A stretch of DNA of 64,000 bases, from IMG/VR virus record IMGVR_UViG_3300019487_000026, positions 25,344 to 89,343 of that record; one strand, written 5' to 3'. Of this stretch, positions 24,493 through 43,241 are shown piece by piece. Source of the stretch: a virus. Under the pieces are notes generated by a model that saw only the letters and a program-made list of their open reading frames with translations, did no database searches and was not told the origin of the DNA. The first letter of the stretch is position 1. The number at the start of each line of letters is the position of its first letter. A program made the position numbers and the translations under genes.

Positions 24493-24494
24493 GG

Positions 24495-25427: not shown

Positions 25428-28400
25428 TGGACAAGAAGAATCAAGTCGTAAAACTGATGGGTAAGACGATGCGCCACATGGCGGGCCGTTCACAAGGCCG
25501 CTACAAAGGTGCAGGTCTTCTACTCGCAGGTGATCCGGGGGTGGGGAAGGCCCAACCATTGTATTCAAAAGTGTTAACGCCAACTGGTTGGAAGACAATG
25601 GGCGAGGTTGTTATCGGTGATGATGTTATTACACCGTCTGGGGATGTTGCGAAAATTACGGGCGTGTTTCCGCAGGGTAAGAAAGACATTTATACTATCA
25701 CGTTTCACGACGGCAGTCAAACGCAATGTTGCAAAGAACACCTCTGGAAGTGTTATTATTCACCATATTCTACACAACCAGCGGAAGAACATATTGTTTC
25801 AACGGAGCAACTTATAGACTTGCTCAACACAATGAAAAATAAAGGTTATAACAACAATATTTCAATTCCTCTCACAACAGCAGTTGAATATTCGACTCAA
25901 AATTATGAGATTGATCCATATGTTTTGGGAGCACTATTGGGTGATGGATCACTATGTGGTAGCACGATCCGGTTTACATCTGTCGACAGGGAAATTGTCG
26001 AACGTATCCAAACGTTTTTGCCAGAGCAAATGCAAATTAATAACATTTCTGGATCCGTAAAAGAACATTTGATTGTGCGGAAACCAGAATTTTTTAGAAC
26101 ACGCCAAGAAAGCAAATTTGTTTCTATACTGAAAAAACTTGAATTATACGATAAACATTCACACGAAAAGTTTATCCCTGATGTCTACAAACACGGTTCT
26201 GTTGACCAGCGGTTTGCTCTTTTACAAGGTTTGATGGATACAGACGGGACAGCCACCACACAACAAGGACGACCCTCCTTTTGCTCAACAAGCTATCGTC
26301 TTGCAAGAGACGTGCAAGAATTAGTGTGGTCGCTTGGTGGTTGCGCATCTATTAGCACAACACACCCAACTTACACCTATAGGGGTGAAAAACATCAAGG
26401 AAAAACAGCATATGTTGTGCTGATAGCACATCCAACACCAAAAATGCTTTTCTCGTTGTCTCGCAAGAAAGACCTGTGTCGTGAGACACACGGTAATGAT
26501 CGTATTACCTTACGACGACGTGTTGTTTCTATTCAACAAACTGGATATGAAGAAGCCCAATGTATTTTAGTTGATCATCCCGATCATCTGTATATAACTG
26601 ATGGTTATATCGTTACACACAACACGACATTCGTTGAGCTCATGTCGGGCTTGCTTGGCCTTCCAGCAGTCATCATTGAGATTCCCCACATTACGGAAGA
26701 ACACTTGATCAATATTCCGTTCATCGTTTATAACGATGTCGACAACACTACAAAGCAAGGTGTGTCGCAAATGAAACCAGCAGGCCAGGGATCTGACGAA
26801 TATGAGTTGGTTCTGGCACAGTCGAATTTGTACACGCAAATTATGGCTGAGAAGAAAACTCCTGATGCGGAGTATCTCAAGAAGATGAAAACAGCTCCTC
26901 GCTATGTGCAAGATATGTTCCGCTTTTACGGTGGAAACGAAACAACAATTCCGCCGGTAATTCATGCTCTTCGTTCGAAATATGAAAACCTTCTCTTCTT
27001 GGATGAATATTATCGCAATACGTCAATGCGTATTCGAAACATCTTGCGTTCGCTGCTGAACCGTAAGATCGGTAGCCACCCACTACCCAAAACAACGTAC
27101 ATTATCTATGCATCAAACATGAACGATGCTGGTCTTGAAGATATTCCGGACAATCATCAATTCAAAGAAATGGAATATAAGACTCCTTCAAAGAATGACT
27201 GGTTTGACTGGTTAGAATCCAACGTTGTCCACAAAACTGGGAAGCCCCTACAACCTGAAGTTCTTCAGACCTTTCGGACGCTTCTAAAAGACGAAGACAT
27301 GAGTCATACGGATGTCGACACAGGGATTCGCACCTCACCTCGACGCTGGGAACAGTTGATTCTGTACGTGAATGCAGCGTTGCCAGTTGACAACCAAGCA
27401 GAGGCAAAGGCTTTGCTGACGAACGTACGAAACAACTTCATTGGTTTTGAACATGGAGCTGATGACAAGTGGCGTCACAGTAGTATTGAAAAGAAAGTTG
27501 TCAAGGCAGTGGCAAAACTGATTCAAACAACTTCTAGTATCACGACAGCACCCACCGACGTGCATGAAATGCATGATTGGCGAGAAACTCTAACACATCA
27601 ACTTCGTATGCGAATGCGGTTGGGTGATCATCGTAAGTATGTGCCGGTCGTTTCGGGTCCTCCAGGTATTGGTAAGACAACACAAGCTGAAATCATTGCA
27701 ACTAAAATTGCGAATGAACACGGCTGCAAGTTCGGTCTTCGGGTGATTGACATCGACATTGGGGAAATCTTTTCAGAAGATGCAACAGGTCTGCCTCTTC
27801 CTGGTCGTCGTTTTGAAGAGCACGGACAACGTCAAATCACTGTGAAATTCTCATTTCCTAAACTGTATCATCAAATCATGACGATGATTAAGGAAAAGGA
27901 TCATGATTTTATTGAGTCCTTGAAAGACGAACACGGAGACGAAGCACCGAAATATATTCAAGAATACGAAAAACAACGCTGGAAGTACCTGATCTTCTTT
28001 GACGAAATTAACCGTGTCGACGAAAACACGTTTAATGCGTTGCGGCGTGTCATTCTCGAAAAGAACTTCGGTCCTGCTGGTGATGCTCACGGTTCGATGC
28101 TAAAACTTCCGAAGGAAGCAATTATCTTTGCTGCAATGAATCCAGAAGGAACTGGTACAATTCCATTAACGGCTCACTTTCGTGATGTTGTTGATCTGGT
28201 TCCGTCAAAGGGCTCATGGCAAATGACGAGAGCATACCTCCGTACGCTTTCATCCGGCAAAGGCAATCTTCGTGATGTTGCTCTAAACATTGCGGACGCG
28301 TTCGTCGATAAATTCAAGAGTCGCGATTCGAAATATCATTCTCAAGAAACAGCATTTTGGTTGGATATTGGAACGCCCGTGTATATTTCACCTCGTGAAT

Positions 28401-29137
28401 ATGAAGACGTTATTGAGACGCTTGTTGATGAAATGGAAGCTGGAATCAAGGACGCCCTTGATGATCCTGATATGAAGGAGGAAGGCTTACGAGATGCGAT
28501 GGACGATGTTGTTGGTGAAGCACTAGAAGATTCCTTGGCATTCTCGTTCCGAAAAGGTCATACGAATAAAGAGGAATTCATGGCAAAGGTACGGCCGTGG
28601 GTTGCTTCTCTTGATGATCGCGTGTTTGGCGGCCTTGTCTCGAAGAAAACCAAGGCACCGACAATGGCAGAGTCGCTGGCTCGATACTTCGAAGGGACCG
28701 ACTTGACGCACATGAGTGACGACGCGAACTTTGCGCACATCAATTTAAGCGCCAATAATGCTCAGTTTGTTGAAGAAGTTAAAGAACTGCTCACAACACG
28801 CTTTACCGATGATGCATCCGTGCAGAAGTATTTGCTTGAAAAAACGCACTCCAAGATCGTTCTTGATAAAGCTGGTCGCCAACTGAAGACCAACCCAGGC
28901 GAAAAGGTTTCCCTCTTTACGAATTTCGTGTATGCTGTCCTTTATACGCTGCACATTCACAATCATCAGTTCGATCGCCTTGTAGCGCTCGGAAAGGCAA
29001 TTTCACAGTCGTTCTCCAACATTGTGAAAACCTTGGAGCAAAAAGGTCGCTTGAGTGCTGACATTAAACGTCAGACTGACCGTGAGGTGACGCGGATCCG
29101 AACAGAAGTACCTGAACTTGTTCAAAGCTTGACGTAA
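25427..29137 (+). CDS. Tandem MoxR-like AAA+ ATPase containing an intein
   Basis: GDPGVGK/T and GPPGIGKT Walker A; FLDE and FFDEINR Walker B; SPRRW and SPREY. Confidence 0.88.
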   Translation: MDKKNQVVKLMGKTMRHMAGRSQGRYKGAGLLLAGDPGVGKAQPLYSKVLTPTGWKTMGEVVIGDDVITPSGDVAKITGVFPQGKKDIYTITFHDGSQTQCCKEHLWKCYYSPYSTQPAEEHIVSTEQLIDLLNTMKNKGYNNNISIPLTTAVEYSTQNYEIDPYVLGALLGDGSLCGSTIRFTSVDREIVERIQTFLPEQMQINNISGSVKEHLIVRKPEFFRTRQESKFVSILKKLELYDKHSHEKFIPDVYKHGSVDQRFALLQGLMDTDGTATTQQGRPSFCSTSYRLARDVQELVWSLGGCASISTTHPTYTYRGEKHQGKTAYVVLIAHPTPKMLFSLSRKKDLCRETHGNDRITLRRRVVSIQQTGYEEAQCILVDHPDHLYITDGYIVTHNTTFVELMSGLLGLPAVIIEIPHITEEHLINIPFIVYNDVDNTTKQGVSQMKPAGQGSDEYELVLAQSNLYTQIMAEKKTPDAEYLKKMKTAPRYVQDMFRFYGGNETTIPPVIHALRSKYENLLFLDEYYRNTSMRIRNILRSLLNRKIGSHPLPKTTYIIYASNMNDAGLEDIPDNHQFKEMEYKTPSKNDWFDWLESNVVHKTGKPLQPEVLQTFRTLLKDEDMSHTDVDTGIRTSPRRWEQLILYVNAALPVDNQAEAKALLTNVRNNFIGFEHGADDKWRHSSIEKKVVKAVAKLIQTTSSITTAPTDVHEMHDWRETLTHQLRMRMRLGDHRKYVPVVSGPPGIGKTTQAEIIATKIANEHGCKFGLRVIDIDIGEIFSEDATGLPLPGRRFEEHGQRQITVKFSFPKLYHQIMTMIKEKDHDFIESLKDEHGDEAPKYIQEYEKQRWKYLIFFDEINRVDENTFNALRRVILEKNFGPAGDAHGSMLKLPKEAIIFAAMNPEGTGTIPLTAHFRDVVDLVPSKGSWQMTRAYLRTLSSGKGNLRDVALNIADAFVDKFKSRDSKYHSQETAFWLDIGTPVYISPREYEDVIETLVDEMEAGIKDALDDPDMKEEGLRDAMDDVVGEALEDSLAFSFRKGHTNKEEFMAKVRPWVASLDDRVFGGLVSKKTKAPTMAESLARYFEGTDLTHMSDDANFAHINLSANNAQFVEEVKELLTTRFTDDASVQKYLLEKTHSKIVLDKAGRQLKTNPGEKVSLFTNFVYAVLYTLHIHNHQFDRLVALGKAISQSFSNIVKTLEQKGRLSADIKRQTDREVTRIRTEVPELVQSLT
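25550..26623 (+). mobile_element. Class 3 intein with LAGLIDADG endonuclease, inserted in the Walker A motif
   Basis: Starts Ala (AQPLYSKV), ends THN/T; HLW, QC and VTHN give the WCT triplet; LGALLGDG and LQGLMDTDG. Confidence 0.9.
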
Positions 29138-29146
29138 GGGTGGATC

Positions 29147-31042
29147 ATGGGACGAGCAGCGTTTGCACGATTTGAGCGGCTGACGGAAGCGTCATCTCCA
29201 CCTTTGTATAGAAAACGTGCCGCGCCTGGCGAGGTCAAGTTCTCTAAGTCTTCGTTCACAGATCCCTTCATTCAAAAAATGCTGACACTGATCGGTGGAG
29301 TGGCAAAAAAGACTCCTGCAGAACTTGAAAAAGAGATTCAGGCGTATATCGACACCGAGCTTGCGCCGGCGGCAAAGAAAGCGCCTCTCTTGTATCATAC
29401 GATGATGGACAATGCTATCGAAGGTGAAGTCTTCAAGAAGTTTGAAGAGATAGCGTACGATAGTGGTGCGCCAACACTCAATCTACCAACGTTTTTGCTT
29501 CTCGTAAACTGGATTGCGGCGGATCACGACGAGGTTTGGCCTCTGCGTGGTTATATCGATCGGCGTCGTCTAGCAAACCCACGCTATACATGGTCAGGAA
29601 CACCACTTGCTGGATGTAATATCGTTCCCCAAAAGGGACGTCCGTATGATTCAATCAAAACTGCTGCGGCAACACCAGGTGGTGAATTTATCTTCAACTT
29701 GCAGTTCGTTCAGAAGTGGCTCGACTGGGCTCATCTGAAAGGTGTTCGCGGGCCAGGCAAGAAATATATGTCCAACGGTGGAAAGATTCCGGACGCATAT
29801 GTGTTTATCGAATTCCTGATCCTTCACGAATTCTTCCACTATTCAAATGATGACTTTTACTACCAGAAGGTCATCCCGAAAGCCAATCCAAAGATTATCA
29901 ACTGGGTTGGGGATTTCCGGTCGAATTATTTTCTTGTGAAGAGTGGTTATCCACAACCACCAATTGGTCTGTTTAATGATTTGATCAATTACGATCGACA
30001 ACCCGATTACGTTACGATGTACAACCTCGTCAAGGAGCAAATGGAAAAGCTCCGAGATCCCGATCTCGAGAAAAAGATCCAAGACATTATGGATGGGATG
30101 TCCGACGATCACGGACCTGGGTCGGAAGAGGGCGAAGAGGCTGAGGTCGATCCAAACACGACTGCAGAAGATCTCGACAAACACGGAAAGCAAGTTCAGG
30201 ACAAAGCTTCCAAGTCCGAAGACACCAGCGCCGAAGAGCGAGAGGCAAAAGAAAAAGAAAACGCAGAGCAGGACCAAAAGGAACGCGAGCGTGCTGAAAA
30301 AGGTCGTCGAGAAAAAGGCGGAAAAGCACAAGGTGTTGACTATTCGAAGATTGCCCCCGACTATAAGTGGGATCAACTCGTCGACCGATTTGTCAAGTCT
30401 TCAAAGATACTGAAACAGTTCAGTTATCGTCGTCCTAGCCGACGAAACGTGACGGGATTAGATGTCCTTCGCCAACAAAAAGCTGCTGCCCTGAAACCAT
30501 CTGAAGTAGCGATGGAACACGTTGATCTAAACTTGTGTTTCGTTCTGGACTGCTCCGGATCGATGCTTGGAAATGTCAAGAAAGTATTCGTCAATGCTCG
30601 ATCGCTTTTGACAGACCGTAAATTTGAAAAGTCTGAGGTGTACGTGTTGAAATTTAGCGATCAACATGAACTATACAAGGGTGTGTTCAAGACGAACAAG
30701 GCGCGAAAGATTGAAGACATTGCAAAAGATCGATTTGGTCCTTACAACACGACGATGGATACCGTGTTTGCGACGGCTCGTGGGGGTGGTACGGAAATTA
30801 ATGCGGCGTCGGCAGCCGATATGGCAACGCTGATGAAGTTAGGCTACAATTGTCTAGTGTGTACCGATACCGATATTTTGTGGGAGCACAACTTAACGTT
30901 GATGATGGATCTTTTCAAGAAATTTCCGCGCCATATGTTTCTAATCATGGTTGATCGTCGCTGCTATATTCAATGGCGCCAAAAAACTGGCATTGCAACA
31001 CCAAATATTTCTCACTTCCCTGGTGGTCGATCCGATTACTAA
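29147..31042 (+). CDS. HEXXH metallopeptidase plus vWA domain protein (MoxR partner)
   Basis: ILHEFFHY; DCSGSM MIDAS; GGGTEI; TDTD. Confidence 0.8.
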   Translation: MGRAAFARFERLTEASSPPLYRKRAAPGEVKFSKSSFTDPFIQKMLTLIGGVAKKTPAELEKEIQAYIDTELAPAAKKAPLLYHTMMDNAIEGEVFKKFEEIAYDSGAPTLNLPTFLLLVNWIAADHDEVWPLRGYIDRRRLANPRYTWSGTPLAGCNIVPQKGRPYDSIKTAAATPGGEFIFNLQFVQKWLDWAHLKGVRGPGKKYMSNGGKIPDAYVFIEFLILHEFFHYSNDDFYYQKVIPKANPKIINWVGDFRSNYFLVKSGYPQPPIGLFNDLINYDRQPDYVTMYNLVKEQMEKLRDPDLEKKIQDIMDGMSDDHGPGSEEGEEAEVDPNTTAEDLDKHGKQVQDKASKSEDTSAEEREAKEKENAEQDQKERERAEKGRREKGGKAQGVDYSKIAPDYKWDQLVDRFVKSSKILKQFSYRRPSRRNVTGLDVLRQQKAAALKPSEVAMEHVDLNLCFVLDCSGSMLGNVKKVFVNARSLLTDRKFEKSEVYVLKFSDQHELYKGVFKTNKARKIEDIAKDRFGPYNTTMDTVFATARGGGTEINAASAADMATLMKLGYNCLVCTDTDILWEHNLTLMMDLFKKFPRHMFLIMVDRRCYIQWRQKTGIATPNISHFPGGRSDY

Positions 31043-31578
31043 AGGTCGGTAGATCGAACGTATTCCATGACCCCTTTACATTCGGGGCATTCTGGAAGTT
31101 TCAACTTACCCTCGAAAGCTCCATGCTTTTTTTGACCGAAAACTTTTGGCTTCAAGCAATCCAAGCAACGATACAAGTGCAGTCGCTTTGCCTGTGAAGG
31201 AGGCATATGGACGTGAACGTCTGTATAAATCTCTGGCTTTACGCCAAACTGTTTCATAATCTGAATCCACTCGATTCCATGTGGCTTGGAGTTTGGATGC
31301 ATGATATTCTGTGCTAGGTGTGCTACTTCGTGTGGTACGATTGTTTCGATGAACTCTTGAGAATCCTGTACAATATAATATGGATTGAAACTGATACGAG
31401 TTTTAACGATTGCCCCTTCCGCATCGCTATACGTGAACGTTTGGGCAGCAACCGTACCTCGTTGTGTGTAATCGATTTCGGGGGAAGGAATTTGAACATC
31501 AAGCAAGGAATTTGCCTTGTTCACCCAGTACGTGGTGTGGTCCTCGATTTTGTCTTTAAGCAATGGATCAATCATCAC
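31039..31578 (-). CDS. SprT-like zinc metalloprotease
   Basis: PHEVAHL, PHGIEW, C-terminal CxxC pairs. Confidence 0.88.
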   Translation of the reverse strand: MMIDPLLKDKIEDHTTYWVNKANSLLDVQIPSPEIDYTQRGTVAAQTFTYSDAEGAIVKTRISFNPYYIVQDSQEFIETIVPHEVAHLAQNIMHPNSKPHGIEWIQIMKQFGVKPEIYTDVHVHMPPSQAKRLHLYRCLDCLKPKVFGQKKHGAFEGKLKLPECPECKGVMEYVRSTDL

Positions 31579-31673
31579 AGTTCTCCCCCTATATTTAGCT
31601 GTTGTTGGTTGACAACCCTTTCCACTTTTGTTTATGCTTGAACACGAAATAGGTTCCGCAAATAGGAGATCTC

Positions 31674-32447
31674 ATGGACGAAGTCAAACGGAAGAAAATT
31701 GAAACACTAGCGAAGTGGGGCATTGCACTCGTTGGTGCTGCGGTGATTGCGCCTGTAATCTTTCTTTCGATTAAAGGTTTAATCGGTCTGATTATTGCTT
31801 TCGTCATCGGTTCAACTGCAATCGCATTTGCTCCGTGGTTTGCGATGAAACTAGCAAACTGGAAAGTTAAGGCTATCATGCACGAGGCACACGAAAGCCC
31901 AATCCCAACCCTGCTGAACCAGGTTCAAGAAAAATACCAAGCCCTCTCTCGATTTAAAGACAGCATCACAAACTTTCGCACGGAAATTGCAAATTTCGAA
32001 GAGAAAGTCAAATTGTTTTCCCAGCAGTATCCAGCAGAGGCTCCAAAGTTTGAGCAACAACTCGAGGGGATGAAACGACTGCTACTCTACCGTGTCGACA
32101 AATACAAAGCCGCCAAGAAACAAACAGAAGAGTTCGAAATGGCTGTGGGTAAGGCTCGTGCACTGTGGGATATGAGTCAGGAAGCACAGCGAATGAACAA
32201 ACTCGCTGGGATGCAAACAGGCGATCCATTTGAGAAGATCAAAACCGAAGTTGCTCTTGAGAGTGTTGTTTCATCCGTAAATCAGGCCTTCAGTGAACTG
32301 GAGACTGCTCTGATGGATGATGACACTGCCAAACAGCTCGCCACTAACCACACAACGGCCCTGGAATACAAACCAGTTCCGGCAACCGAAACAGTTGATT
32401 TTTCGCAACTTCCTGCTCAACCAGCCAAAATCAAGGTGCGTGCGTGA
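31674..32447 (+). CDS. Protein with two TM helices and a long coiled coil (PspA-like)
   Basis: TTGACA-17-TATGCT promoter upstream; AGGAG RBS. Confidence 0.7.
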   Translation: MDEVKRKKIETLAKWGIALVGAAVIAPVIFLSIKGLIGLIIAFVIGSTAIAFAPWFAMKLANWKVKAIMHEAHESPIPTLLNQVQEKYQALSRFKDSITNFRTEIANFEEKVKLFSQQYPAEAPKFEQQLEGMKRLLLYRVDKYKAAKKQTEEFEMAVGKARALWDMSQEAQRMNKLAGMQTGDPFEKIKTEVALESVVSSVNQAFSELETALMDDDTAKQLATNHTTALEYKPVPATETVDFSQLPAQPAKIKVRA

Positions 32448-32596
32448 AATTTCGAATCATTGCTATTGTGATCCTTCTTGTCGTCTTGGGGGGATTAGCA
32501 GTTCTTGTCAGCCAAGACGACAGTAGACCTGTGCCTCAAAGTGCACCATCGTCTAATCCAGATGATTCTGCATTGAAAGGGTTGAGAATTAATTAA
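32444..32596 (+). CDS. Small membrane protein
   Basis: GTG overlapping the upstream stop; hydrophobic N-terminus. Confidence 0.55.
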   Translation: MKFRIIAIVILLVVLGGLAVLVSQDDSRPVPQSAPSSNPDDSALKGLRIN

Positions 32597-32606
32597 AGGA
32601 GATTTT

Positions 32607-33527
32607 ATGAAGAACGTAATCGTAGCACTCATTGCAGCACTTGCTGTGGGTACCGCGTCGGCCCAGCAACTGATCGTTGCTACAGGTAGCGCCGAAGGTA
32701 CTTACTCGAAGCTGTTCAAAGAAATGATTGGTCAGTGTTCGGGATCAGGCCTCTCGATGATTGAGAGAAACTCGACCGGATCGATCGAAAACCTGAACAA
32801 CCTTCTCGGCAACCAAATCAACGCTGCGTTCATCCAAACCGACGTGTTGTTCGCTCGTGCCAATCGCGACGATCTCGGCAACGTCAAAACGCTTGTTGCT
32901 CTTCATCCGGAAGAGGTGCACTTCGTTGCACCTGTAAATTCTGGAATCAAGTCGGGTGGTGTTGTGGGCTTTGGTGGTTCGGCTATCGTGTTTAGCAACA
33001 TTGCCGACCTGCAAAACTACAAAGTTGGTGCAGCTGGTGGTTCGGTTGTCTCTGCAAACCTGATTCGTCTTCAAAGCGAAATTGCTTATCAGGTTGTCGA
33101 GTACGCTGACAACAAGGCCGCTCTGACCGGGCTCGCTGCAGGTGAGATTCAAGCCGTCGTGATGGTTGGTGGTGCTCCGCTTGGTGCTGTTGAAGCGCTT
33201 GGACCGAGCTACAAACTGTTGTCGATCAATGAGTCGACGTACAACAAGCTCAAGGGCGTCTATCGTCAAGCTCGCCTGTCGTACAACAAGCCGAACTCGC
33301 TCAAAGCGGATGGTGTGTCCACGATTGCCACAGACGCGCTTCTCGTCACGAGGGAGTACAAGACCGAGAAATTCATCACCGGTCTTTCGAAGTTCCGCAG
33401 TTGCGTTCTAAATGCCCTTCCTGAGCTCCAAGAAACAACCGGTACCCACCCGAAGTGGCAAACGATCAAGGCCGACAACAAAGGCAAGTGGGCCTGGTAT
33501 GATCTACCAGTGGTCGGAAAGAAATGA
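32607..33527 (+). CDS. TAXI-family TRAP solute-binding protein
   Basis: Signal peptide; VATGSAEGTY, STGSIENL, AFIQTD, LHPEEVH. Confidence 0.85.
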   Translation: MKNVIVALIAALAVGTASAQQLIVATGSAEGTYSKLFKEMIGQCSGSGLSMIERNSTGSIENLNNLLGNQINAAFIQTDVLFARANRDDLGNVKTLVALHPEEVHFVAPVNSGIKSGGVVGFGGSAIVFSNIADLQNYKVGAAGGSVVSANLIRLQSEIAYQVVEYADNKAALTGLAAGEIQAVVMVGGAPLGAVEALGPSYKLLSINESTYNKLKGVYRQARLSYNKPNSLKADGVSTIATDALLVTREYKTEKFITGLSKFRSCVLNALPELQETTGTHPKWQTIKADNKGKWAWYDLPVVGKK

Positions 33528-33901
33528 GCAAAAAGACTACATCGTTAGTAGTGTGGATGGATCCGCGCGACTGTGATCCTCCACACGAAGTTCGAAAGCA
33601 CGAGAGGCTCGAGCCTCTCGTGTATGCTTTTGCAACCGAAGGTTTTGACAAGTCTCGTCCTGCGCTCGTCGGCTACATTCTCAATGGACGCATTCAGTTG
33701 CTCAGTGGAACACACAGACACGCGGCTGCAAAGAAAGTTGGAATTCAGATTCCCGTCACGATCTGGCTAGGATCACAAATTGAAGAGTCCTGGGGTGTTT
33801 CACTCGAGGAGTGGCGAAGAATTATGGAGGACATTCCTGTCTCTGATCTCGAAACGGTTGACCTCGAGTACTTCCGTGAGCATGGATTGGTAGAGAAGTG
33901 A
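33524..33901 (+). CDS. ParB/sulfiredoxin-like domain protein
   Basis: LLSGTHRHAAA. Confidence 0.7.
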   Translation: MSKKTTSLVVWMDPRDCDPPHEVRKHERLEPLVYAFATEGFDKSRPALVGYILNGRIQLLSGTHRHAAAKKVGIQIPVTIWLGSQIEESWGVSLEEWRRIMEDIPVSDLETVDLEYFREHGLVEK

Positions 33902-34055
33902 TTCTTCACCCTGTTTTCTTTTCTGTTGTCTTTCTTTGAACCTCCATATATACTTTCATCCTTGCCTGTTTGAAAGCAGGTTTGGAATTGTTGACCTAGC
34001 ATATAAATAGGTCGATGATGTGTGAACATTGTTTGTTTTGAACGAAGGATTTGAA

Positions 34056-34250
34056 ATGCATAACTCGCAACGACATAGCTGGCGCCAACTGAGCAACTCG
34101 CTCGGGTTGAGCTCCGTCTGCTCAGAGCGAGATTATATGCGCTTTGAACAGCCTAGCAGCGCCCTTCGTGGAGGACCTGGAATCTAAAGTTCTCAAAAAA
34201 GATAGACAAACACGAAGGGCCTTGAGAGAAATCCAAGGCCCTTTTATTTT
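34056..34250 (+). promoter_or_regulatory. Leader peptide (43 aa, 34056-34187) with antiterminator and terminator: putative attenuator upstream of the tRNA array
   Basis: GCCCTTCGTG (34161-70) is the exact reverse complement of CACGAAGGGC (34211-20), which overlaps the terminator stem. Confidence 0.7.
34215..34250 (+). terminator. Intrinsic terminator
   Basis: AAGGGCCTTG-N9-CAAGGCCCTT-TTATTTT. Confidence 0.85.
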
Positions 34251-34425
34251 GGTGTACGTGTTGATGCGGAACGTGACTGCGACCCAACACGCAAAAGATA
34301 GTCGGTCGAATGGGCGGGTGTCCGGATGAAACCGTGGCGGGAACGCGGGAGTACAAAAGGCACTTGCGTATTCGTATGAGTACGCATTTTCTTGATCATT
34401 TCTAAGAGTGATCAAGAAAATCAAT

Positions 34426-34499
34426 GGTGACTCTAGTGTAGTGGTAGCACAATTCGCTGTGAACGAGTTAGCCAGGGTTCAATTCCCGGAGCCACCCCA
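34426..34499 (+). tRNA. tRNA-His(GTG) with encoded G-1
   Basis: Cloverleaf, CCA. Confidence 0.9.
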
Positions 34500-34554
34500 C
34501 AATTGGGTTCAATATAAATACGCCTGTTCGGCGAACCGCCGCAAGGAGAATATA

Positions 34555-34971
34555 ATGAACACCAAAGATCAAGGAAGTCTCGGAGTGCTAGTTGTAATGC
34601 AGCAGGCAGTACAAAAAGGGTATATAGTTTGCGTTCCGTATGGTGATAACCAACGATACGATCTTCTGTTTGATAGAAACGGTCAATACCAACGTGTACA
34701 AGTCAAATATATAACACCCAAAGATGGAAGAATAAAACTAAAGCTCTTCACTGTAATGCATGACAAAAATAGAACCACTGAAAGAAAGTATCGTCGGGTA
34801 AAATATACAGCAAAAGATATTGACTTTTTTGCAATTGTGAACGCAAACACACATGAAGTGTATATGATCCCGTTGAGTGAAATAAATGGGCACTCAGAAA
34901 TGGTACTTCGAACAGACGAAGATTTGCGTAAAAGTAGCAAGGCTCGTCTAGCTAAGAATTATTTGATGTAA
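34555..34971 (+). CDS. PD-(D/E)XK endonuclease (free-standing homing type)
   Basis: PYGDNQRYDLL...RVQVK...Y..KDIDFF. Confidence 0.85.
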   Translation: MNTKDQGSLGVLVVMQQAVQKGYIVCVPYGDNQRYDLLFDRNGQYQRVQVKYITPKDGRIKLKLFTVMHDKNRTTERKYRRVKYTAKDIDFFAIVNANTHEVYMIPLSEINGHSEMVLRTDEDLRKSSKARLAKNYLM

Positions 34972-34977
34972 TAAAAT

Positions 34978-35068
34978 GGAAGGTAAACTGACAAGGCGTC
35001 AGGCTCGTTTGCTAAACGAAGAGAGCGACCTAACGTTGCTTGAGTTTCGATTACTCTGCCTTCCTCCA
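34978..35068 (+). tRNA. tRNA-Ser(GCT)
   Basis: Long variable arm, CCA. Confidence 0.85.
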
Positions 35069-35070
35069 AA

Positions 35071-35122
35071 TATCACCATAGTGAAATTGGAGATCATCTA
35101 ACCCTGCGAAGGTTCGTTTTGG
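35071..35122 (+). pseudogene. Truncated tRNA (5' half, GCG anticodon) upstream of the HNH gene
   Basis: TAGTGAAATTGGAGATCAT D arm and AACC-CTGCGAA-GGTT; no T arm. Confidence 0.55.
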
Positions 35123-35144
35123 TTTCGCAAGCATAAATAGTGAT

Positions 35145-35585
35145 ATGAAAACAAAATATTGTCCTCGTTGTGAAGAAGATAAAGCACTCGCTGAGTTCTC
35201 ACATAAGAACAAAGCGAAAAAGATATTAGCTGATCATTGTAAGGTGTGTGTTCGTTCTTATGCTAAGGAACACTACGAAGCGAACAAGAAACAGTATAAG
35301 GAACGAGCAGCTCGTAATCATCAGAAAACGATAGAGTGGTATCGTAAATTGAAAGAGTCGTTGCAGTGTTGCTGGTGCGGTGAAAAAACTAGTTGTACAT
35401 TAGATTTTCATCACGTGGATGCCAGCAAAGAGTTTGAGATTGGGACGGGCTTTTACAAAGTATCTAGGAAAACATTGATTGCAGAATTAGCAAAATGTGT
35501 GTGCTTGTGTGCGAATTGTCATCGCAAAGTTCATGCTGGATTGATTGATCTTCCAGCACACATAAAGCGCATTACTATAAAGTAA
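35145..35585 (+). CDS. HNH homing endonuclease
   Basis: CPRC, CKVC, LDFHH, LCANCHRKVH. Confidence 0.88.
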   Translation: MKTKYCPRCEEDKALAEFSHKNKAKKILADHCKVCVRSYAKEHYEANKKQYKERAARNHQKTIEWYRKLKESLQCCWCGEKTSCTLDFHHVDASKEFEIGTGFYKVSRKTLIAELAKCVCLCANCHRKVHAGLIDLPAHIKRITIK

Positions 35586-35586
35586 T

Positions 35587-35658
35587 ATCGCGTCCGACGG
35601 ATTCGGGCCTGTGTTTGCGAAACACGGTGAAACCGTTCGACTCGGTTACGCGGTGCCA
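35587..35658 (+). tRNA. Atypical tRNA-Arg(GCG)
   Basis: Acceptor stem, T arm and CCA present; D stem directly follows the acceptor strand. Confidence 0.7.
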
Positions 35659-35667
35659 AAATATAAC

Positions 35668-35741
35668 GGTGGCATGGTGTAATGGTAGCATAGGAGTCTG
35701 TCTAACTCTTGGCAGGGGTTCAATTCCCCTTGTCACCGCCA
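35668..35741 (+). tRNA. tRNA-Asp(GTC)
   Basis: Cloverleaf, CCA. Confidence 0.88.
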
Positions 35742-35742
35742 T

Positions 35743-35829
35743 GGATGACGACTGGCATTGGCGACCAGAGCAGTCTGTAAAACTGTATCCCTTCGGGGAG
35801 ACTAGGTTCGATTCCTAGGTCATCCACCA
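35743..35829 (+). tRNA. tRNA-Tyr(GTA)
   Basis: Long variable arm, CCA. Confidence 0.88.
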
Positions 35830-35859
35830 ATTTTATGGTATGCTGTTGTTTTACCTGTT

Positions 35860-36741
35860 TTGGAGAACAACGTGAACCGTCTTTTACTGCTTGGTTTTAT
35901 GATGTTTTTTGTCTCGAGCGTTTCAGGAAATCAACAATTTGAAACATTTGCTCGACACATGGAACGTGAACATGGTTTCGATAGAAGCGAGATTCATGTT
36001 CTGCTCAAGGGCACGGAACCACTTCAAGACGTGTTGCAAATGTTTCGGCGACCGTCAACTGACAAGTCGTTCGATGAATTTGAACGTTGGTTTATTAATG
36101 AACGTCGAATCAATAATGGTGTAATGTTTTTGATCGAACATCATGACCTGCTCGAACGAGCAGAAAGAGTATACGGAGTACCAGCCCCAATGATTGTCTC
36201 GTTTCTTGGTATCGAAACGAGCTATGGGACGAATATAGGCAAGCACAAGGTGGTTGAGTCACTGATTACGTTGGGCTTCTATGGACATCGTAGGCAAGAA
36301 TATTTCCGCTATGAATTGGAACATTTCCTGGTCACGGCTCGAGAGTTGAATTGGGACCGCAATCAGATCGTTGGATCGTTTGCAGGTGCAATTGGCATTC
36401 CGCAATTTATGCCAAGCAATATTCGTAAGCTTGCTGTCGATTTTGATGGAGATGGTCAGATTGATCTTATCGGAAACAAAGCCGATGCAATTGGTAGTGT
36501 TGGAAATTATCTTCAACAGGCGGGCTGGCGTCGAGGAGAACCAGTAGCAACAAGAATTAAAATCACTGATAAGCGTGGTGGATCATTTGTATTGCGGACC
36601 TTACCTGGTCCAGATCCAGTTCGTTTTCGGATTGAGCATAATTACAAAGTCATCAAACGGTACAATCCGAGCGATAATTATGCAATGACAATTTTCATCC
36701 TTGCTGAAAAAATCAAGGAACGTAGGAAAGGTGAAAACTAA
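35860..36741 (+). CDS. mltB: Lytic murein transglycosylase B-like protein
   Basis: GIETSYG, GSFAGAIG.PQFMPS, VDFDGDGQIDL, YN.S..YA. Confidence 0.9.
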   Translation: MENNVNRLLLLGFMMFFVSSVSGNQQFETFARHMEREHGFDRSEIHVLLKGTEPLQDVLQMFRRPSTDKSFDEFERWFINERRINNGVMFLIEHHDLLERAERVYGVPAPMIVSFLGIETSYGTNIGKHKVVESLITLGFYGHRRQEYFRYELEHFLVTARELNWDRNQIVGSFAGAIGIPQFMPSNIRKLAVDFDGDGQIDLIGNKADAIGSVGNYLQQAGWRRGEPVATRIKITDKRGGSFVLRTLPGPDPVRFRIEHNYKVIKRYNPSDNYAMTIFILAEKIKERRKGEN

Positions 36742-36746
36742 ACAAA

Positions 36747-36821
36747 GGTGGATTGGTGAAATGGCTATCACACGACTCTCATAAGGTTGAGTAAACGGAT
36801 CGTAACCGTTATCCACTACCA
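36747..36821 (+). tRNA. tRNA with CAT anticodon (Met or Ile2)
   Basis: Cloverleaf, CCA. Confidence 0.8.
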
Positions 36822-36844
36822 ACCACGCACGACCAAAAGTATAT

Positions 36845-36920
36845 GTACTGGCATGCAAACTGGCTAGCGAACAGGCTTTCAACCTGTAATTTGCGGGTTC
36901 AATTCCCGTCCAGTACTCCA
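36845..36920 (+). tRNA. tRNA-Glu(TTC)
   Basis: ACAGG-CTTTCAA-CCTGT, CCA. Confidence 0.8.
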
Positions 36921-36928
36921 AATTTTAT

Positions 36929-37006
36929 GCCCTGGTGGATAAATCGGCAAAATCGCCTCGTTTAGACCGAGGAGTTGTGAGGGTTCGAATCCCTCTCGGG
37001 GCACCA
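36929..37006 (+). tRNA. tRNA-Leu(TAG), short variable arm
   Basis: Cloverleaf, CCA. Confidence 0.85.
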
Positions 37007-37122
37007 AGTTGTTGCGTAGGAAACACAGTTACTTCATTTCTGCAAAAAATGAGTTAGGAGTTCGATTCTCCTCTTGAATCCTGGACGGAACTTATGTCAC
37101 TGTATCCGACTTCATCTCAGCT
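37007..37122 (+). ncRNA. Y-RNA-like ncRNA 2 containing an anticodon-like hairpin (GCA) and a T arm
   Basis: TTGCGTAGG...AGTTACTTCA at the 5' end; AGGAG-TTCGATT-CTCCT; CCGACTTCATCT-CAGCT at the 3' end. Confidence 0.65.
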
Positions 37123-37129
37123 TGATTAT

Positions 37130-37202
37130 GGAGAAGTAGCTTAAGAGAGAGCACGCCCACTCGGAGGGCGCCGCGATGGTTTAAACCCATCCTTCTCCAC
37201 CA
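37130..37202 (+). tRNA. Degenerate tRNA (loop ACTCGGA; probably TCG/Arg)
   Basis: Intact stems and CCA but non-canonical D, T and anticodon loops. Confidence 0.6.
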
Positions 37203-37406
37203 ATTTTTAGGAGCGTGTTATGAATGACCAAGAATTTAGAAACTAATTGAAGACGCATGCACAAAAGTGTCTGACATTGATCTTGCTGATATGCTCAAAG
37301 TCAGTAGACCTACAATTGATCGTTGGAGATGTGGTGTTACTTCACCGCACCCCTTCGCGCGGGCGAGTGTTGCAAGGATTGTAAACGCTCTGAAATAAAT
37401 ACCGGT

Positions 37407-37778
37407 ATGAAACTCCTAGAAGTCATTACCGACGACGAAATTGAACAATTCAAGCAAGCATTCCATATGTTTATGAACAGTAAACTACGGAATCAATGGC
37501 TTGGAGGTGATGTCATTCAGGTATACATGCGGAAGGGCATTCACGTTATTGGTCGTCAAGCATTCAAGACGCTTGATATCGCAAACATTCAGATCGACGA
37601 AAGTGAGCGGGGAAAAGGCGTTGGGATGAGACTGATTGACTGGTTGCATGAACAGAATCCCTTTGAAGTTACATACGTAGAGAGCTTGCAGAATCTACGT
37701 TTGTATGCAAGTCTTAAGCAACGTGGTTGGATTGATGTTCCAAATTCTCAACCACCTAGTGTGTATAAAACAAAGTAA
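37407..37778 (+). CDS. GNAT-like acetyltransferase (late)
   Basis: IANIQIDESERGKGVG; TAAATA upstream. Confidence 0.7.
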   Translation: MKLLEVITDDEIEQFKQAFHMFMNSKLRNQWLGGDVIQVYMRKGIHVIGRQAFKTLDIANIQIDESERGKGVGMRLIDWLHEQNPFEVTYVESLQNLRLYASLKQRGWIDVPNSQPPSVYKTK

Positions 37779-37782
37779 ATTT

Positions 37783-37857
37783 CTCCGTAGAGCGTGAGGG
37801 TTAGCGTACAACGTTTGGGGCGTTGTGGATCAGGTTCGAGTCCTGCTCACACAGCAG
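37783..37857 (+). pseudogene. Degenerate tRNA-Pro(TGG)
   Basis: CAACG-TTTGGGG-CGTTG and T arm present; acceptor stem does not pair. Confidence 0.6.
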
Positions 37858-37863
37858 AATAAC

Positions 37864-37937
37864 AGGTCGCTAGTGTAATGGCAGCATGACAACCTCCAAA
37901 GTTGTTGGTGGGAGTTCAAGTCTCTCGCGACCTGCCA
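37864..37937 (+). tRNA. tRNA-Trp(CCA)
   Basis: Cloverleaf, CCA. Confidence 0.9.
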
Positions 37938-37946
37938 AATTGTAAT

Positions 37947-38025
37947 GCAGCTCTGGCAGAGGTGGTCCTACATGCGTGTGCCTGAAGAGCACAAGATCTC
38001 AGTTCGATTCTGGGGGGCTGCACCA
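37947..38025 (+). tRNA. tRNA-Phe(GAA)
   Basis: Cloverleaf, CCA. Confidence 0.88.
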
Positions 38026-38170
38026 AAGTTTCGAAGTGAATTGTTTCAAGCCGTCTGAAGGGGTTGCAACTCCGACAGATGTATAATGGATTAGCTCACG
38101 ACGCGTCCGGGCTTGTTATGAAACGGCGCTTGATCAGCGTTTCTGGCCAAGAACGAGCGAAAAGATTATT

Positions 38171-38254
38171 GGGCAAGTGGGGGAATTGGCAGACCCACCA
38201 CTTTGAGAGGGTGGCGCGTAAAGCGTGCAGGTTCGAATCCTGTTTTGCCCACCA
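38171..38254 (+). tRNA. tRNA-Leu(GAG)
   Basis: Cloverleaf, CCA. Confidence 0.9.
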
Positions 38255-38257
38255 AAT

Positions 38258-38353
38258 GGAAGATTGGGTGAGTGGCTTAAACCACCTATCTCGAAAATAG
38301 GAGGGTCGGGGACTAGCTCGGCTCCGTAGGTTCGAATCCTACATCTTCCGCCA
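38258..38353 (+). tRNA. tRNA-Ser(CGA)
   Basis: Cloverleaf, CCA. Confidence 0.9.
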
Positions 38354-38355
38354 AT

Positions 38356-38433
38356 GCGTTGCTGATGGGAATTGGCAGACCTCATACGCTCAAACCGTAT
38401 GGTTTCTCGGTTCGACTCCGAGGCAACGCACCA
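38356..38433 (+). tRNA. tRNA-Leu(CAA), short variable arm
   Basis: Cloverleaf, CCA. Confidence 0.85.
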
Positions 38434-38436
38434 TTC

Positions 38437-38510
38437 GCGGGTATAGTATAATGGTATTATGCGACATTGCCAGTGTTGAGACGTGGGTTCGATTCCCACT
38501 ACCTGCTCCA
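38437..38510 (+). tRNA. tRNA-Gly(GCC), no insert
   Basis: Cloverleaf, CCA. Confidence 0.9.
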
Positions 38511-38568
38511 GTTGTTGACCCTTTGTAAATAGGTGAAAATGTTGCCATACGACAAAGGAGAGATTCAG

Positions 38569-39843
38569 ATGAAAAAGTTTGGTGCACTTGCAATCGACCT
38601 CGAATGGAAAGATGATCCTCGTTGGAATGGCGTAAAACGACCGTATACTGGCGAAGACGTGTACAAATTACAAGGGTCGATGCCCATCCAGTACACACTA
38701 GCAACTCACGGTGCATATAAACTTTGGAATATGTTGCATGAACGTCCATTCGTCCATGCACTTGGTGCTGTCACGGGCATGCAAGCTTTGCAACAAGTTA
38801 AAGCAGGCTTGCCAGCAATTTATTTGTCGGGTTGGCAAGTTGCAGCTGATGCAAACGACAGCTTGAATATGTATCCTGATCAATCATTGTACGCTACGAC
38901 AAGTGTGCCAACGGTTGTTGAACGTATCAACAACACATTGAGTCGTGCGGACCAAATCCAGCACATGGAAGGGCGAGACGAGATTGATTACTTCGCCCCA
39001 ATCGTTGCTGATGCTGAGGCTGGCTTTGGAGGAGTGCTAAACGCACACGAGCTGATGAAAGCAATGATTCGTGCAGGTGCTGCGGGTGTCCATTTTGAAG
39101 ATCAACTTGCCTCTGTCAAGAAATGTGGGCACATGGGTGGTAAGGTTCTTGTGTCGACCCGTGAAGCTGTTGAAAAACTGGTTGCAGCTCGTCTCGCAGC
39201 CGACATTATGGGTGTGCCTACAGTATTGTTTGCACGAACCGATGCAGAGGCGGCGAACTTGATTACAAACGATGTCGACGAAAATGACAAACCATTCTTG
39301 ACAGGTGAACGAACTGTTGAAGGTTTCTATCGTGTGCGAAACGGTCTCGAACAAGCTATCTCGCGCGGTCTTGCTTATGCACCGTATGCAGATCTTGTGT
39401 GGTGTGAGACGGGAAAACCTGATCTCGAGTTCGCGAAGAAATTTGCGGAAGCGGTGCTGCGTGAAAATCCAACTAAGATGTTGGCGTACAATTGTTCGCC
39501 ATCGTTTAACTGGAAAAAGAATCTTGACGACGCAACGATTGCAAAATTCCAGCACGAGCTTGGAGCGATGGGATACAAGTTCCAATTCATTACGCTGGCA
39601 GGATTCCATGCGTTGAACTACTCGATGTTTGACCTTGCACATGGATATGCTCGACACAATATGTCAGCGTTTGTCGAGCTTCAAGAGAAAGAATTTAAGG
39701 CTGCTGCGGTTGGCTTCACTGCTGTGAAGCATCAGCGCGAAGTTGGGACGAGTTATTTTGATGAGATCACGCAGGTGATCCAGTCGCGCATGTCCTCAAC
39801 AACTGCGTTGAAAGGTTCGACCGAAGAAGAGCAGTTTCACTAA
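38569..39843 (+). CDS. aceA: Isocitrate lyase
   Basis: [40 protein letters not shown]. Confidence 0.97.
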
Positions 39844-39848
39844 ACAAA

Positions 39849-39925
39849 CGCAGGGAAGGTGCTGGATTTCCTCGACTGGTTTCATACGCCAGTTCACGTC
39901 GGTTCAATTCCGACCCCTGCAACCA
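39849..39925 (+). tRNA. tRNA-Met(CAT), C1:A72 mismatch (initiator-like)
   Basis: Cloverleaf with atypical D arm, CCA. Confidence 0.75.
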
Positions 39926-39928
39926 TTT

Positions 39929-40007
39929 CAGAGTGTAGGAAAGCCTGGCTTAATCCGTCGCGTCCGGAGCGCGAAGACCGTTGGTTCGAATCCAACCACT
40001 CTGACCA
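39929..40007 (+). tRNA. tRNA-Pro(CGG)
   Basis: Cloverleaf, CCA; C at position 33. Confidence 0.85.
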
Positions 40008-40126
40008 ACAGCTGCGTAGGTATGGAGTTCTTCATTCCAAACTGCGAACGGGAGTTCGATTCTCTCTTTATCGTCTAGTGGTAAGACAGCAGTCAACAAA
40101 GATGCCAAACCGTTTTAAACTCTGTT
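40008..40126 (+). ncRNA. Y-RNA-like ncRNA 3 containing a circularly permuted tRNA-Gly(TCC) core without an acceptor stem
   Basis: Order TTCCAA-ACTGC, T arm, D arm, GCAGTC, inside termini shared with the other two RNAs. Confidence 0.7.
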
Positions 40127-40143
40127 GATTAATATTTAACAAT

Positions 40144-40219
40144 TGCCTCGTGGTGTAATGGTTAGCATGCTTGCCTTTGAAGCAAGTCGGTGTTGGTTCG
40201 AATCCAGCCGGGGTAGCCA
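40144..40219 (+). tRNA. tRNA-Gln(TTG)
   Basis: Cloverleaf, CCA. Confidence 0.88.
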
Positions 40220-40231
40220 TAGGAGATTAGT

Positions 40232-40402
40232 ATGTCCAAGAAAGATGAAAAGAAGAAGCAAAGGCTTCAAGAGAGACTGACCCAACTTGAACAAGAACTG
40301 ACAACTGCACTGACAAAGAAGTCATCTGCAACGACGGAAATCAATGTTCCTGAGTATACGCGGAGGATTCAAGAACTGCGTGAGCAACTAGCGAAAATGT
40401 AA
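40232..40402 (+). CDS. Small coiled-coil protein
   Basis: AGGAG RBS; MSKKDEKKKQRLQERL... Confidence 0.6.
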   Translation: MSKKDEKKKQRLQERLTQLEQELTTALTKKSSATTEINVPEYTRRIQELREQLAKM

Positions 40403-40437
40403 TTCGTCAGGTATAATGTTGTCATTAGGAGAAATCA

Positions 40438-40665
40438 ATGCCGAATCCAACATTGAAAGACATGGTGATTGACAATAAAAAGGTTCACTTCATTTTCTAT
40501 CGTGAGAAGGAACTGTGGTACAAGACGGAAACTGGCTTTGAGTTTCCCGTTCCTATCGAAGACGTTGGGAACGCTATCTTTCTTGCGGAAGATAAGGCTC
40601 TGCTGTTCATGCGTTATATTCGCAAGCAGTTGCAAACAATTGAAAAAGCAAAGCAAGAGCAATAA
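40438..40665 (+). CDS. Small phage protein
   Basis: AGGAG RBS; FEFPVPIEDVGNA.FLAEDKA. Confidence 0.7.
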   Translation: MPNPTLKDMVIDNKKVHFIFYREKELWYKTETGFEFPVPIEDVGNAIFLAEDKALLFMRYIRKQLQTIEKAKQEQ

Positions 40666-40669
40666 CAAT

Positions 40670-40743
40670 TGGGATGTGGTGTAATGGTAGCATTGCTGGT
40701 TCTGACCCAGTAGGCCAAGGCTCGATTCCTTGCATCCCTGCCA
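40670..40743 (+). tRNA. tRNA-Gln(CTG)
   Basis: Cloverleaf, CCA. Confidence 0.88.
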
Positions 40744-40951
40744 CTAAATACAAGCAATGATTTCTGAGGAGGTGCATGCCATGGAACATATCAGAAAGTT
40801 GCTTGATCGATTATTTGGTAATACGAAAAAACCTGCACCGCGTGTCAAGAAGCCTTTGACAAAGATGGAAATCATGAATCACCTTCGAAAGGAGCGTCTC
40901 AAACGAGAGGCACTTGAAAAGGGCTCCAAAAAATAAGATAGTTGTAAGCAC

Positions 40952-41026
40952 GACGTGGTGGCAGATTGGACATGCGTCAGCCTGCAAAGCTGTTCTAAAA
41001 GGGTTCGATTCCCTTACACGTCTCCA
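40952..41026 (+). tRNA. tRNA-Cys(GCA)
   Basis: Cloverleaf, CCA. Confidence 0.85.
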
Positions 41027-41259
41027 CTATTTGGAGGAATTGTGCGACTCATTTTTGGAATGATCTTATTGTTCATTGTCGATCTGTTGACTCCATTCAT
41101 TCCGCTAGGTTCGCTGCTGTTGGTGTTTGCCGTACTGCACGAACCGACAGCACGACGGCTTGTTAATTACATTGCTGCTGTCCACAACCGACAGTAGTTG
41201 CCCTCAAAGCCCCTTTAGGGTATGGTGGGGTATTCTAAATACCCTTTTTGGAGATATAG

Positions 41260-41694: not shown

Positions 41695-41704
41695 TTTTTT
41701 AACT

Positions 41705-41779
41705 GCGGGTGTCGTATAGTGGCTATTATCTCTGCCTTCCAAGCAGAGGAGGAGGGTTCGAATCCCTCTACCCGCTCCA
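41705..41779 (+). tRNA. tRNA-Gly(TCC)
   Basis: Cloverleaf, CCA. Confidence 0.92.
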
Positions 41780-41793
41780 ATAAGGATTGTGTC

Positions 41794-42234: not shown

Positions 42235-42243
42235 GAGAAATAT

Positions 42244-42831: not shown

Positions 42832-42856
42832 GGGAGTAGAAATAAATAGGTCCACT

Positions 42857-43231: not shown

Positions 43232-43241
43232 GGAGGATCAT

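Follow-up and report, generated by a model that had tools for sequence, protein, structure and literature searches.

A candidate leader-peptide attenuator at the head of the tRNA array of uncultivated giant phages

Introduction

How does a phage that carries dozens of tRNA genes set the time and the amount of their expression? Genes for tRNAs are generally thought to be controlled at their promoters. The question is raised by a 64,000-nucleotide (nt) stretch of the IMG/VR virus record IMGVR_UViG_3300019487_000026 (positions 25,344 to 89,343 of that record), referred to below as the window; positions without a locus name are those of the window. Its source is an 89-kb viral contig judged 35% complete, and for that reason the window is taken to come from an uncultivated giant phage. 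Opened by tRNA-His, an array of 27 tRNA genes extends from 34426 to 46889. A small module lies immediately in front of it, consisting of a promoter region, a leader open reading frame (ORF), and an intrinsic terminator that overlaps a possible antiterminator. An earlier annotation made from the sequence alone (the initial annotation) had named a promoter, a 43-amino-acid (aa) ORF with nine serines, a 10-nt complement and a strong terminator, and had proposed that translation of the ORF controls transcription into the array. Every one of these features is present in the sequence.

Here we describe the module in six distinct loci. With a probability of about 0.6, its parts and their conservation suggest that a ribosome-mediated (leader-peptide) transcription attenuator gates the phage tRNA array. 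The phage would then probably make the tRNAs of the array mainly when ribosomes run slowly.

Results

Complementarity between the leader ORF and the terminator

Segment 2, located close to the end of the leader ORF, can pair with segment 3, located downstream of the stop codon, and the last six nucleotides of segment 3 are the beginning of the terminator 5' arm (Table 1). Of 5000 dinucleotide-preserving shuffles of positions 34056-34200, none contained a perfect complement of at least 10 nt to a stretch that shares 4 nt or more with the 5' arm; the longest complement was 9 nt, seen in 11 of the 5000. A scan of both strands found seven perfect-stem terminator-like hairpins in the window, and this is the only one with such a complement, the other six having 0-7 nt. 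Because no shuffle reached 10 nt and no other hairpin has an equivalent, we do not consider the complementarity of segments 2 and 3 a product of chance. The terminator hairpin on the plus strand has a predicted energy of -20.3 kcal/mol (RNAfold) and is present in the minimum free energy (MFE) folds of the window. Our terminator scan reports a hairpin here on the minus strand only, a consequence of its loop limit of 8.

Table 1. Parts of the module and the first gene of the array in the window
Feature	Position	Strand	Basis or remark
Upstream sigma-70-like promoter, P1	33926-33954	+	Promoter scan, 9/12 matches
Promoter P2: -35-like TTGACC (33991-33996), 17-nt spacer, weak -10-like hexamer (34014-34019)	33991-34019	+	Promoter scan, 9/12
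Segment 1, purine-rich ribosome-binding stretch	34042-34049	+	Complementary to 7 nt of segment 2
Leader ORF, 43 codons (9 Ser)	ATG 34056 to TAA 34185-34187	+	ORF list shows a longer, TTG-started form in the same frame
Segment 2, upstream antiterminator strand, leader codons 36-39	34161-34170	+	Exact 10-nt complement of segment 3
Antiterminator inner hairpin, with the stop codon (34185-34187) in its loop	34171-34194	+	Predicted fold
Segment 3, downstream antiterminator strand	34211-34220	+	0 mismatches to segment 2
Intrinsic terminator: arms 34215-34224 and 34234-34243, 9-nt loop, T-run 34244-34250	34215-34250	+	RNAfold
Conserved structured spacer RNA	34257-34420	+	RNAalifold on 5 loci
tRNA-His(GUG), first gene of the array	34426-34498	+	tRNA search

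Six loci with the same order of parts

The family comprises six distinct loci, namely the window, L005, L006, L008, L009 and L015, all from uncultivated giant phages. L009 equals L010 over 651 nt and L015 equals L016 over 581 nt, and each of these pairs was counted once. L005 and L006 were found with peptide patterns in metagenome contigs, and L008 and L009/L010 with DNA patterns in viral contigs. L015/L016 were reached by alignment of the 521-aa protein encoded upstream and are hence independent of the element; an enlarged alignment of this protein recovered the same five loci and no new one.

All six loci share a common order: one or two strong promoters, the ORF, segment 2, the inner hairpin, segment 3, the terminator, a spacer, tRNA-His and further tRNAs. 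In every locus tRNA-His is the first tRNA after the module and heads the array, at a distance of 124-270 nt from the terminator. A covariance model of the switch matched once in each of the six family records and not at all in G001, an unrelated complete phage of 259.6 kb. In the relatives the gene for the 521-aa protein lies directly upstream of the leader; in the window the two are separated by about 11.5 kb. Since the upstream gene differs between genomes, the module appears to travel with the array and not with that gene.

Further searches delimit the family. With the window DNA as query, the GenBank phage collection returned tRNA-His matches only (five records), and neither the 521-aa protein nor the leader peptide had a match there. 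A comparison of the peptide alignment with viral contigs succeeded for 0 of 24 stretches and then for 1 of 8, the latter on an already known family contig. A pattern scan of genome contigs gave five matches, none a family member; these lacked tRNA-His and were repeat-like palindromes or chance matches. L007 was likewise rejected as a chance DNA-pattern match without tRNAs.

Conservation of the alternative helix

Failure of the 10-bp helix to be conserved had been named beforehand as the outcome that would speak against an attenuator. The helix formed by segments 2 and 3 is kept in all six distinct loci, with one double change that preserves a pair. Over nine aligned pairs, 53 of 54 cells are paired; L009 has lost one terminal pair, and in L015 a change from C-G to U-A on both sides keeps the pair. 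Segment 3 is invariant in five of the six loci, and the sixth, L015, carries the compensating change.

The base of segment 2 that differs in L015 turns an Arg codon into a Cys codon; in the six DNA loci the two codons differ by one transition. Among 28 aligned leader peptides this position (38 of the leader) is occupied by Arg (20) or Cys (8) only, a pattern that makes more sense for a base pair in RNA than for a position in a protein. At the preceding position, 37, one peptide has Pro instead of Leu and two have Phe. The codons of segment 2 (35-38) show no synonymous difference over 50 synonymous sites when pooled over 15 pairs of loci, versus 118.2 differences over 214.8 sites in the comparison codons 9-34. 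The third position varies in none of the four segment 2 codons as compared with 21 of 26 upstream codons, and segment 2 is in the same codon phase in all six loci. The inner hairpin differs in sequence in each locus and is predicted in all six, and the distal stem of the terminator differs in all six and is still paired, which means that it covaries.

The leader reading frame

The leader reading frame is real, as judged from comparison of the sequences. An ATG is present in all six loci and a purine-rich ribosome-binding stretch in five. Frame 0 alone is open in all six, the other two frames containing 1-6 stops; differences in ORF length are all multiples of three, and every one of the six ORFs ends with TAA. 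Several codon columns vary at the third position only. For codons 9-34 the nonsynonymous (pN) and synonymous (pS) differences per site are 0.25 and 0.55 (pN/pS 0.46), and those of the neighbouring 521-aa protein are 0.38 and 0.72 (pN/pS 0.53). The initial annotation had the ORF as a coding frame in front of the tRNA array, and this holds for the family, in which the frame is conserved and the module always heads the array.

A HMMER search with the 43-residue peptide returned two small proteins and one 576-aa repeat protein (P0002), which was dropped as a low-complexity repeat match. A profile search found 26 related peptides of 43-61 aa among 2297 metagenome candidates, where they are called as genes. 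The 28-row alignment combines the profile-search peptides with the translated loci; P0002, P0017 and P0027 were left out, the latter two being N-terminally extended forms of P0015 and P0025. The leader peptide matched no Pfam or NCBIfam family. RNA structure within the ORF has a weak consensus (alifold energy -5.8) and for this reason does not explain the conservation of the peptide. On the opposite strand, an ORF at 34122-34424 gives weak tblastn matches. No ORF of at least 100 aa is present there in L009 and the match in L005 overlaps tRNA-His, so we regard this minus-strand ORF as a shadow of the conserved RNA.

Energetics and geometry of the two folds

In transcripts cut before the terminator 3' arm, the antiterminator is the MFE structure in all six loci (-22.0 to -28.0 kcal/mol). 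The complete region favours the terminator state, with energies of -28.9 to -41.1 kcal/mol versus -26.2 to -32.1 kcal/mol when the antiterminator is forced. Folded alone, the antiterminator element (-20.6 to -24.3 kcal/mol) and the terminator (-19.2 to -22.7 kcal/mol) are balanced. Terminator hairpins are followed by T-runs in 6/6 loci. Segments 1 and 3 have a 7-nt repeat in common, and pairing of segment 1 with segment 2 is part of the full-length MFE structure in the five loci other than L015.

Across the six loci, 19-23 nt separate the stop codon from segment 3, and the loop between segments 2 and 3 measures 39-42 nt; in each of them the TAA is in a loop of the element. A ribosome of the usual footprint size that has reached the stop codon would unwind segment 2 and the inner hairpin, occupy the loop and leave the terminator 5' arm free. 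The initial annotation had the translating ribosome cover the upstream antiterminator strand. This detail has to be revised, as segment 2 ends 14-20 nt before the stop codon. Because a ribosome on the stop codon sits in the loop and not on segment 2, it would block the antiterminator by unwinding and steric hindrance.

In L005, L009 and L015, the three relatives scanned, no sigma-70-like promoter was found in the interval from the terminator to tRNA-His. In the same interval of the window the sole promoter match overlaps the terminator and is not conserved.

Composition of the leader and the phage tRNA set

The tRNA sets come from four related giant-phage records, G000 and G003 taken whole and G002 and G005 over positions 1-40000; the tRNA genes found number 28, 27, 33 and 37. 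None of the four sets contains a tRNA for Ala, Asn, Ile or Lys, and Thr is found in two of the four. The five amino acids most depleted in the 28 leaders relative to the phage proteome are Ile, Asn, Lys, Ala and Thr. Depletion is associated with the missing tRNAs (Mann-Whitney p 6e-5 to 2e-4; Spearman r 0.52-0.69). In the window leader these five account for 4 of 43 residues versus 30.5% in the proteome, and 132 of 16123 windows of phage ORFs have equally few. The serine-richness pointed out in the initial annotation is there; it forms part of this wider bias toward amino acids with phage tRNAs. Coverage by codons matching the tRNA set is 0.93 for the leader and 0.62 for ORFs in G003, with 23 of 5000 windows as high. 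On average a leader has 17.9 distinct residues and a random window 16.4, and none of 2000 random means reached the leader value; we give this little weight because the peptides are relatives. We regard the match in composition as a supporting hint and not as proof.

A tRNA with a CUA anticodon, which reads amber codons and is labelled Pyl by ARAGORN, lies outside the main array at 20157-20230. It is present in all relatives whose region is covered (L005 1764-1918, L008 4516-4595, and L009 1325-1399 and 6082-6154).

Promoters, spacer RNA and neighbouring genes

A promoter-like site occurs at the place equivalent to P1 in L005 (11/12) and L015 (10/12), and the promoter scan found none there in L009. 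The spacer of P2 contains the octamer TATAAATA (34002-34009). This arrangement is kept in L005, L006, L008 and L009, and in L015 the first base of the octamer is altered. A small hairpin lies between the tandem promoters (33965-33980; L005 approximately 4862-4880, L006 approximately 262-277, L015 approximately 5900-5914). The octamer occurs four times in the window versus 0.9 expected, the other copies being at 1421-1428 (minus strand), 16936-16943 and 34513-34520. Each copy precedes an ORF of its own strand by 10-110 nt, in many cases close behind a hairpin, and the octamer is frequent in the related loci too. It resembles a phage promoter of the T4 late type, a kind that goes with a gp55-type sigma factor.

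A structured spacer RNA was found in five of the six loci; in the relatives it lies at L005 5190-5425, L006 575-796, L008 865-643 (minus strand) and L009 5265-5522, and it was not evident by eye in L015. RNAalifold predicts 34 pairs over the five loci, 20 of them with changes on both sides. One of its hairpins covaries and is flanked by an internal loop rich in purines; another, a long one, immediately precedes the tRNA. At E-values up to 1, no Rfam family covers either the leader or the spacer and the T-box leader model has no match in the sequences searched (positions 33000-36000 of the window, L005, L006, L008 and L009). A match to the BjrC68 small RNA (RF02353), with 24.3 bits at 34196-34251 and 22.8 bits in L008, was rejected; the gathering threshold is 39 bits, and the match spans segment 3 and the terminator only.

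Directly after tRNA-His, at 34555-34971, is a gene for a PD-(D/E)XK endonuclease (Pfam E 4e-27) with a copy of the octamer in front. Its protein led to two further loci, L003 and L004, of which L003 is within G001; this phage has neither the upstream protein nor the element. The next ORF, 35145-35585, has relatives at the same place in L009. Both ORFs resemble mobile nuclease genes dispersed within the array. On the other side of the module the window alone has a stretch of further genes at 22606-33901, among them those for a 1236-aa ATPase, a metallopeptidase-VWA protein and an NMT1_3 periplasmic-binding-like protein. Patterns of the 125-aa protein encoded just upstream of the module in the window had 12 matches in viral contigs, none of them a relative.

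Discussion

A model for gating of the tRNA array

From the parts themselves, their conservation and covariation, and the geometry of the folds, we infer that the switch depends on translation, in which direction it works and what signal it reads. Transcription would start at the strong tandem promoters and proceed through the 43-codon leader. Segments 2 and 3 together with the inner hairpin would constitute an antiterminator element that sequesters the first six nucleotides of the terminator 5' arm. If the lead ribosome keeps pace, it would unwind segment 2 and the inner hairpin and sit on the TAA while the terminator emerges; the terminator would then form and transcription would end 180 nt short of tRNA-His. 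Should the ribosome lag or stall earlier in the leader, the antiterminator would form first and allow read-through into the spacer RNA, tRNA-His and the rest of the array. Where segment 1 can pair with segment 2, as predicted in five loci, untranslated RNA would tend toward termination, in the manner of the trp leader.

Since the leader uses almost only amino acids for which the phage has tRNAs, the likely signal would be the decoding capacity for the amino acids of the leader. Slow decoding of these would raise the output of tRNAs and so close a feedback. In a more specific form, which we put forward tentatively and hold to be possible but somewhat doubtful, the leader would gauge how fast codons for the 15-16 amino acids served by the phage's own tRNAs are read, with feedback on the 27-gene array and the structured RNA, and the nascent chain would itself contribute, perhaps through a sequence programmed to slow or arrest the ribosome. 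A role for the nascent chain is suggested by the protein-like conservation of the peptide.

Several observations weigh against an attenuator, or against its role as a gauge. The initial annotation looked to covarying helices in front of related arrays; helices are found in six loci, and their covariation is statistically weak, the observed value being reached in 85 of 500 shuffles, as expected with six sequences. It depends on one double change in one lineage, and the change in segment 3 of L015 also improves the extended stem of the terminator (G-U to A-U). Pairing of an A-rich stretch with the T-run can explain part of the conservation 5' of segment 3. The sequence identity of L008 and L009 in these segments is partly a matter of ascertainment, since the search patterns contained segment 3 and, for L008, segment 2 as well. 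L015 folds without the pairing of segments 1 and 2, and phage-specific promoters may be present downstream of the terminator. The peptide is conserved about as well as an ordinary phage protein, which a mere ribosome track would not need.

As to the signal, codon coverage in leaders exceeds the ORF mean in four of four genomes and clearly so in one of the four; outside G003 the leader/ORF values are 0.72/0.62, 0.61/0.52 and 0.64/0.57, with 718, 725 and 1260 of 5000 windows as high. One Ser codon occurs five times in the window leader, and no tRNA that reads it was found in the record; the leader also has no tandem run of one regulatory codon of the kind seen in trp or his. Because the records are incomplete (10-68%), the missing tRNAs may lie elsewhere, and the 28 leader peptides are relatives and not independent samples.

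Alternative explanations

The conservation of the peptide could mean that the leader is simply a gene for a small protein, equipped with a promoter and a terminator of its own. Its 43-51-residue product would be what matters, the terminator would do no more than end this mRNA and insulate the array, and the tRNAs would be expressed by leak-through or from an unrecognised promoter. Such a gene fits the pN/pS of codons 9-34, which is 0.46 next to 0.53 in the neighbouring protein, the 26 homologues called as genes in metagenomes, and the lack of a strong conserved RNA structure in the ORF (-5.8) that could account for the conservation of the peptide. We consider it unlikely, because it does not account for the absence of synonymous differences in segment 2, for a complementarity to the terminator arm that is preserved and in one case compensated, for the constant loop of 39-42 nt with the stop codon inside, or for the fixed place before tRNA-His whatever lies upstream. 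It would also sit uneasily with the finding that none of the three relatives scanned has a sigma-70-like promoter behind the terminator, and with a peptide that matches no Pfam or NCBIfam family. A small gene and an attenuator are compatible if the peptide has a second role.

The two folds might instead be chosen by a phage or host protein, a tRNA or a small molecule, with translation of the ORF being secondary. Folds of balanced energy are a property of factor-dependent switches, the inner hairpin and the loop length are conserved, and a second conserved structured RNA follows the terminator. A switch read by a factor alone needs neither an ORF whose start and frame are kept in 6/6 loci nor a stop codon that is always in the loop, and the searches for T-box and other Rfam cis-regulatory families gave no match at E-values up to 1. 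The inner hairpin is conserved in pairing only and not in sequence, which disfavours a sequence-specific binding site there; we hold this explanation to be quite improbable. Finally, segment 2 could serve the translational self-control or the stability of a short leader mRNA, pairing with segment 1 to shut down translation, and its match to segment 3 would then be a by-product. This is in line with the pairing of segments 1 and 2 in the full-length MFE structures of five loci and with the 7-nt repeat common to segments 1 and 3. It appears very unlikely, given that L015 lacks the pairing with segment 1 yet keeps that of segments 2 and 3 with a compensating change, and that in all six loci segment 2 also matches the three bases at the 5' end of segment 3, which are not part of the repeat. 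Ribosome-mediated attenuation is the reading that we retain.

Comparison with known systems

The attenuators of amino-acid operons (trp, his, leu, thr, ilv and phe) combine a translated leader, a terminator and an antiterminator, and the position of the ribosome selects the fold. The phage module shares with them a short translated leader and mutually exclusive terminator and antiterminator structures, and possibly a third pairing, that of segments 1 and 2. In contrast to the classical cases its leader has no tandem regulatory codons, the antiterminator strand is inside the ORF, 14-20 nt before a stop codon that lies in the loop of the element, the target is a set of tRNA genes instead of biosynthetic enzymes, and the host of the system is a phage. 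The trp and leu attenuators are mentioned in PMC10274678, and pheL in PMC3082878.

Among known systems the closest in logic appears to be the attenuator formed by the upstream ORF (uORF) of whiB7 in mycobacteria. According to the source, the terminator forms when this uORF is translated efficiently, and stress on translation yields the antiterminator with read-through; which kinds of starvation are sensed depends on the amino acids that the uORF contains, and the system is activated by knocking down tRNAs and tRNA synthetases (PMC10274678). Both systems have a fairly long uORF of mixed composition upstream of an intrinsic terminator. The target of whiB7 control is a bacterial transcription factor, whereas here it would be a phage tRNA array and a structured RNA. 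The whiB7 uORF is described as highly variable and Ala-rich (PMC10274678), whereas the phage leader is conserved and Ala-poor, and the two have no sequence relation.

A parallel in function is the trn operon of Anabaena, described as a long tRNA array induced by translational stress (PMC8421152, PMC10272220). It too is a large accessory array that is kept low and comes on when translation is impaired. There the repressor TrcR binds direct repeats and thereby controls the promoter (PMC8421152), whereas the phage element would work through a leader ORF and a choice between terminator and antiterminator. The words leader, attenuat- and terminator are absent from the main text of PMC8421152. No published description of a leader-peptide attenuator preceding tRNA genes turned up in our searches, as judged from titles and the openings of abstracts. 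As far as the literature searched goes, the module would represent a known type of regulation on an unexpected target, and a gauge in which the nascent chain takes part would be a form of control that lacks a printed precedent for the tRNA genes of any organism. The only regulated accessory array that we found in print, that of Anabaena, uses a repressor.

Implications

At about 260 nt the module is small enough for the idea of an attenuator to be tested in a reporter, with no need to culture the phage; if correct, it would provide a compact and portable sensor of ribosome speed. The phage would measure translation itself and dose its tRNAs accordingly. This would tie phage tRNAs directly to translation stress, including that caused by tRNA-cutting defences. 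If the leader is indeed a gauge of decoding capacity, tRNAs would be supplied when those of the host are scarce or have been cut by a defence nuclease. The finding bears on why giant phages carry dozens of tRNA genes and on when these are used.

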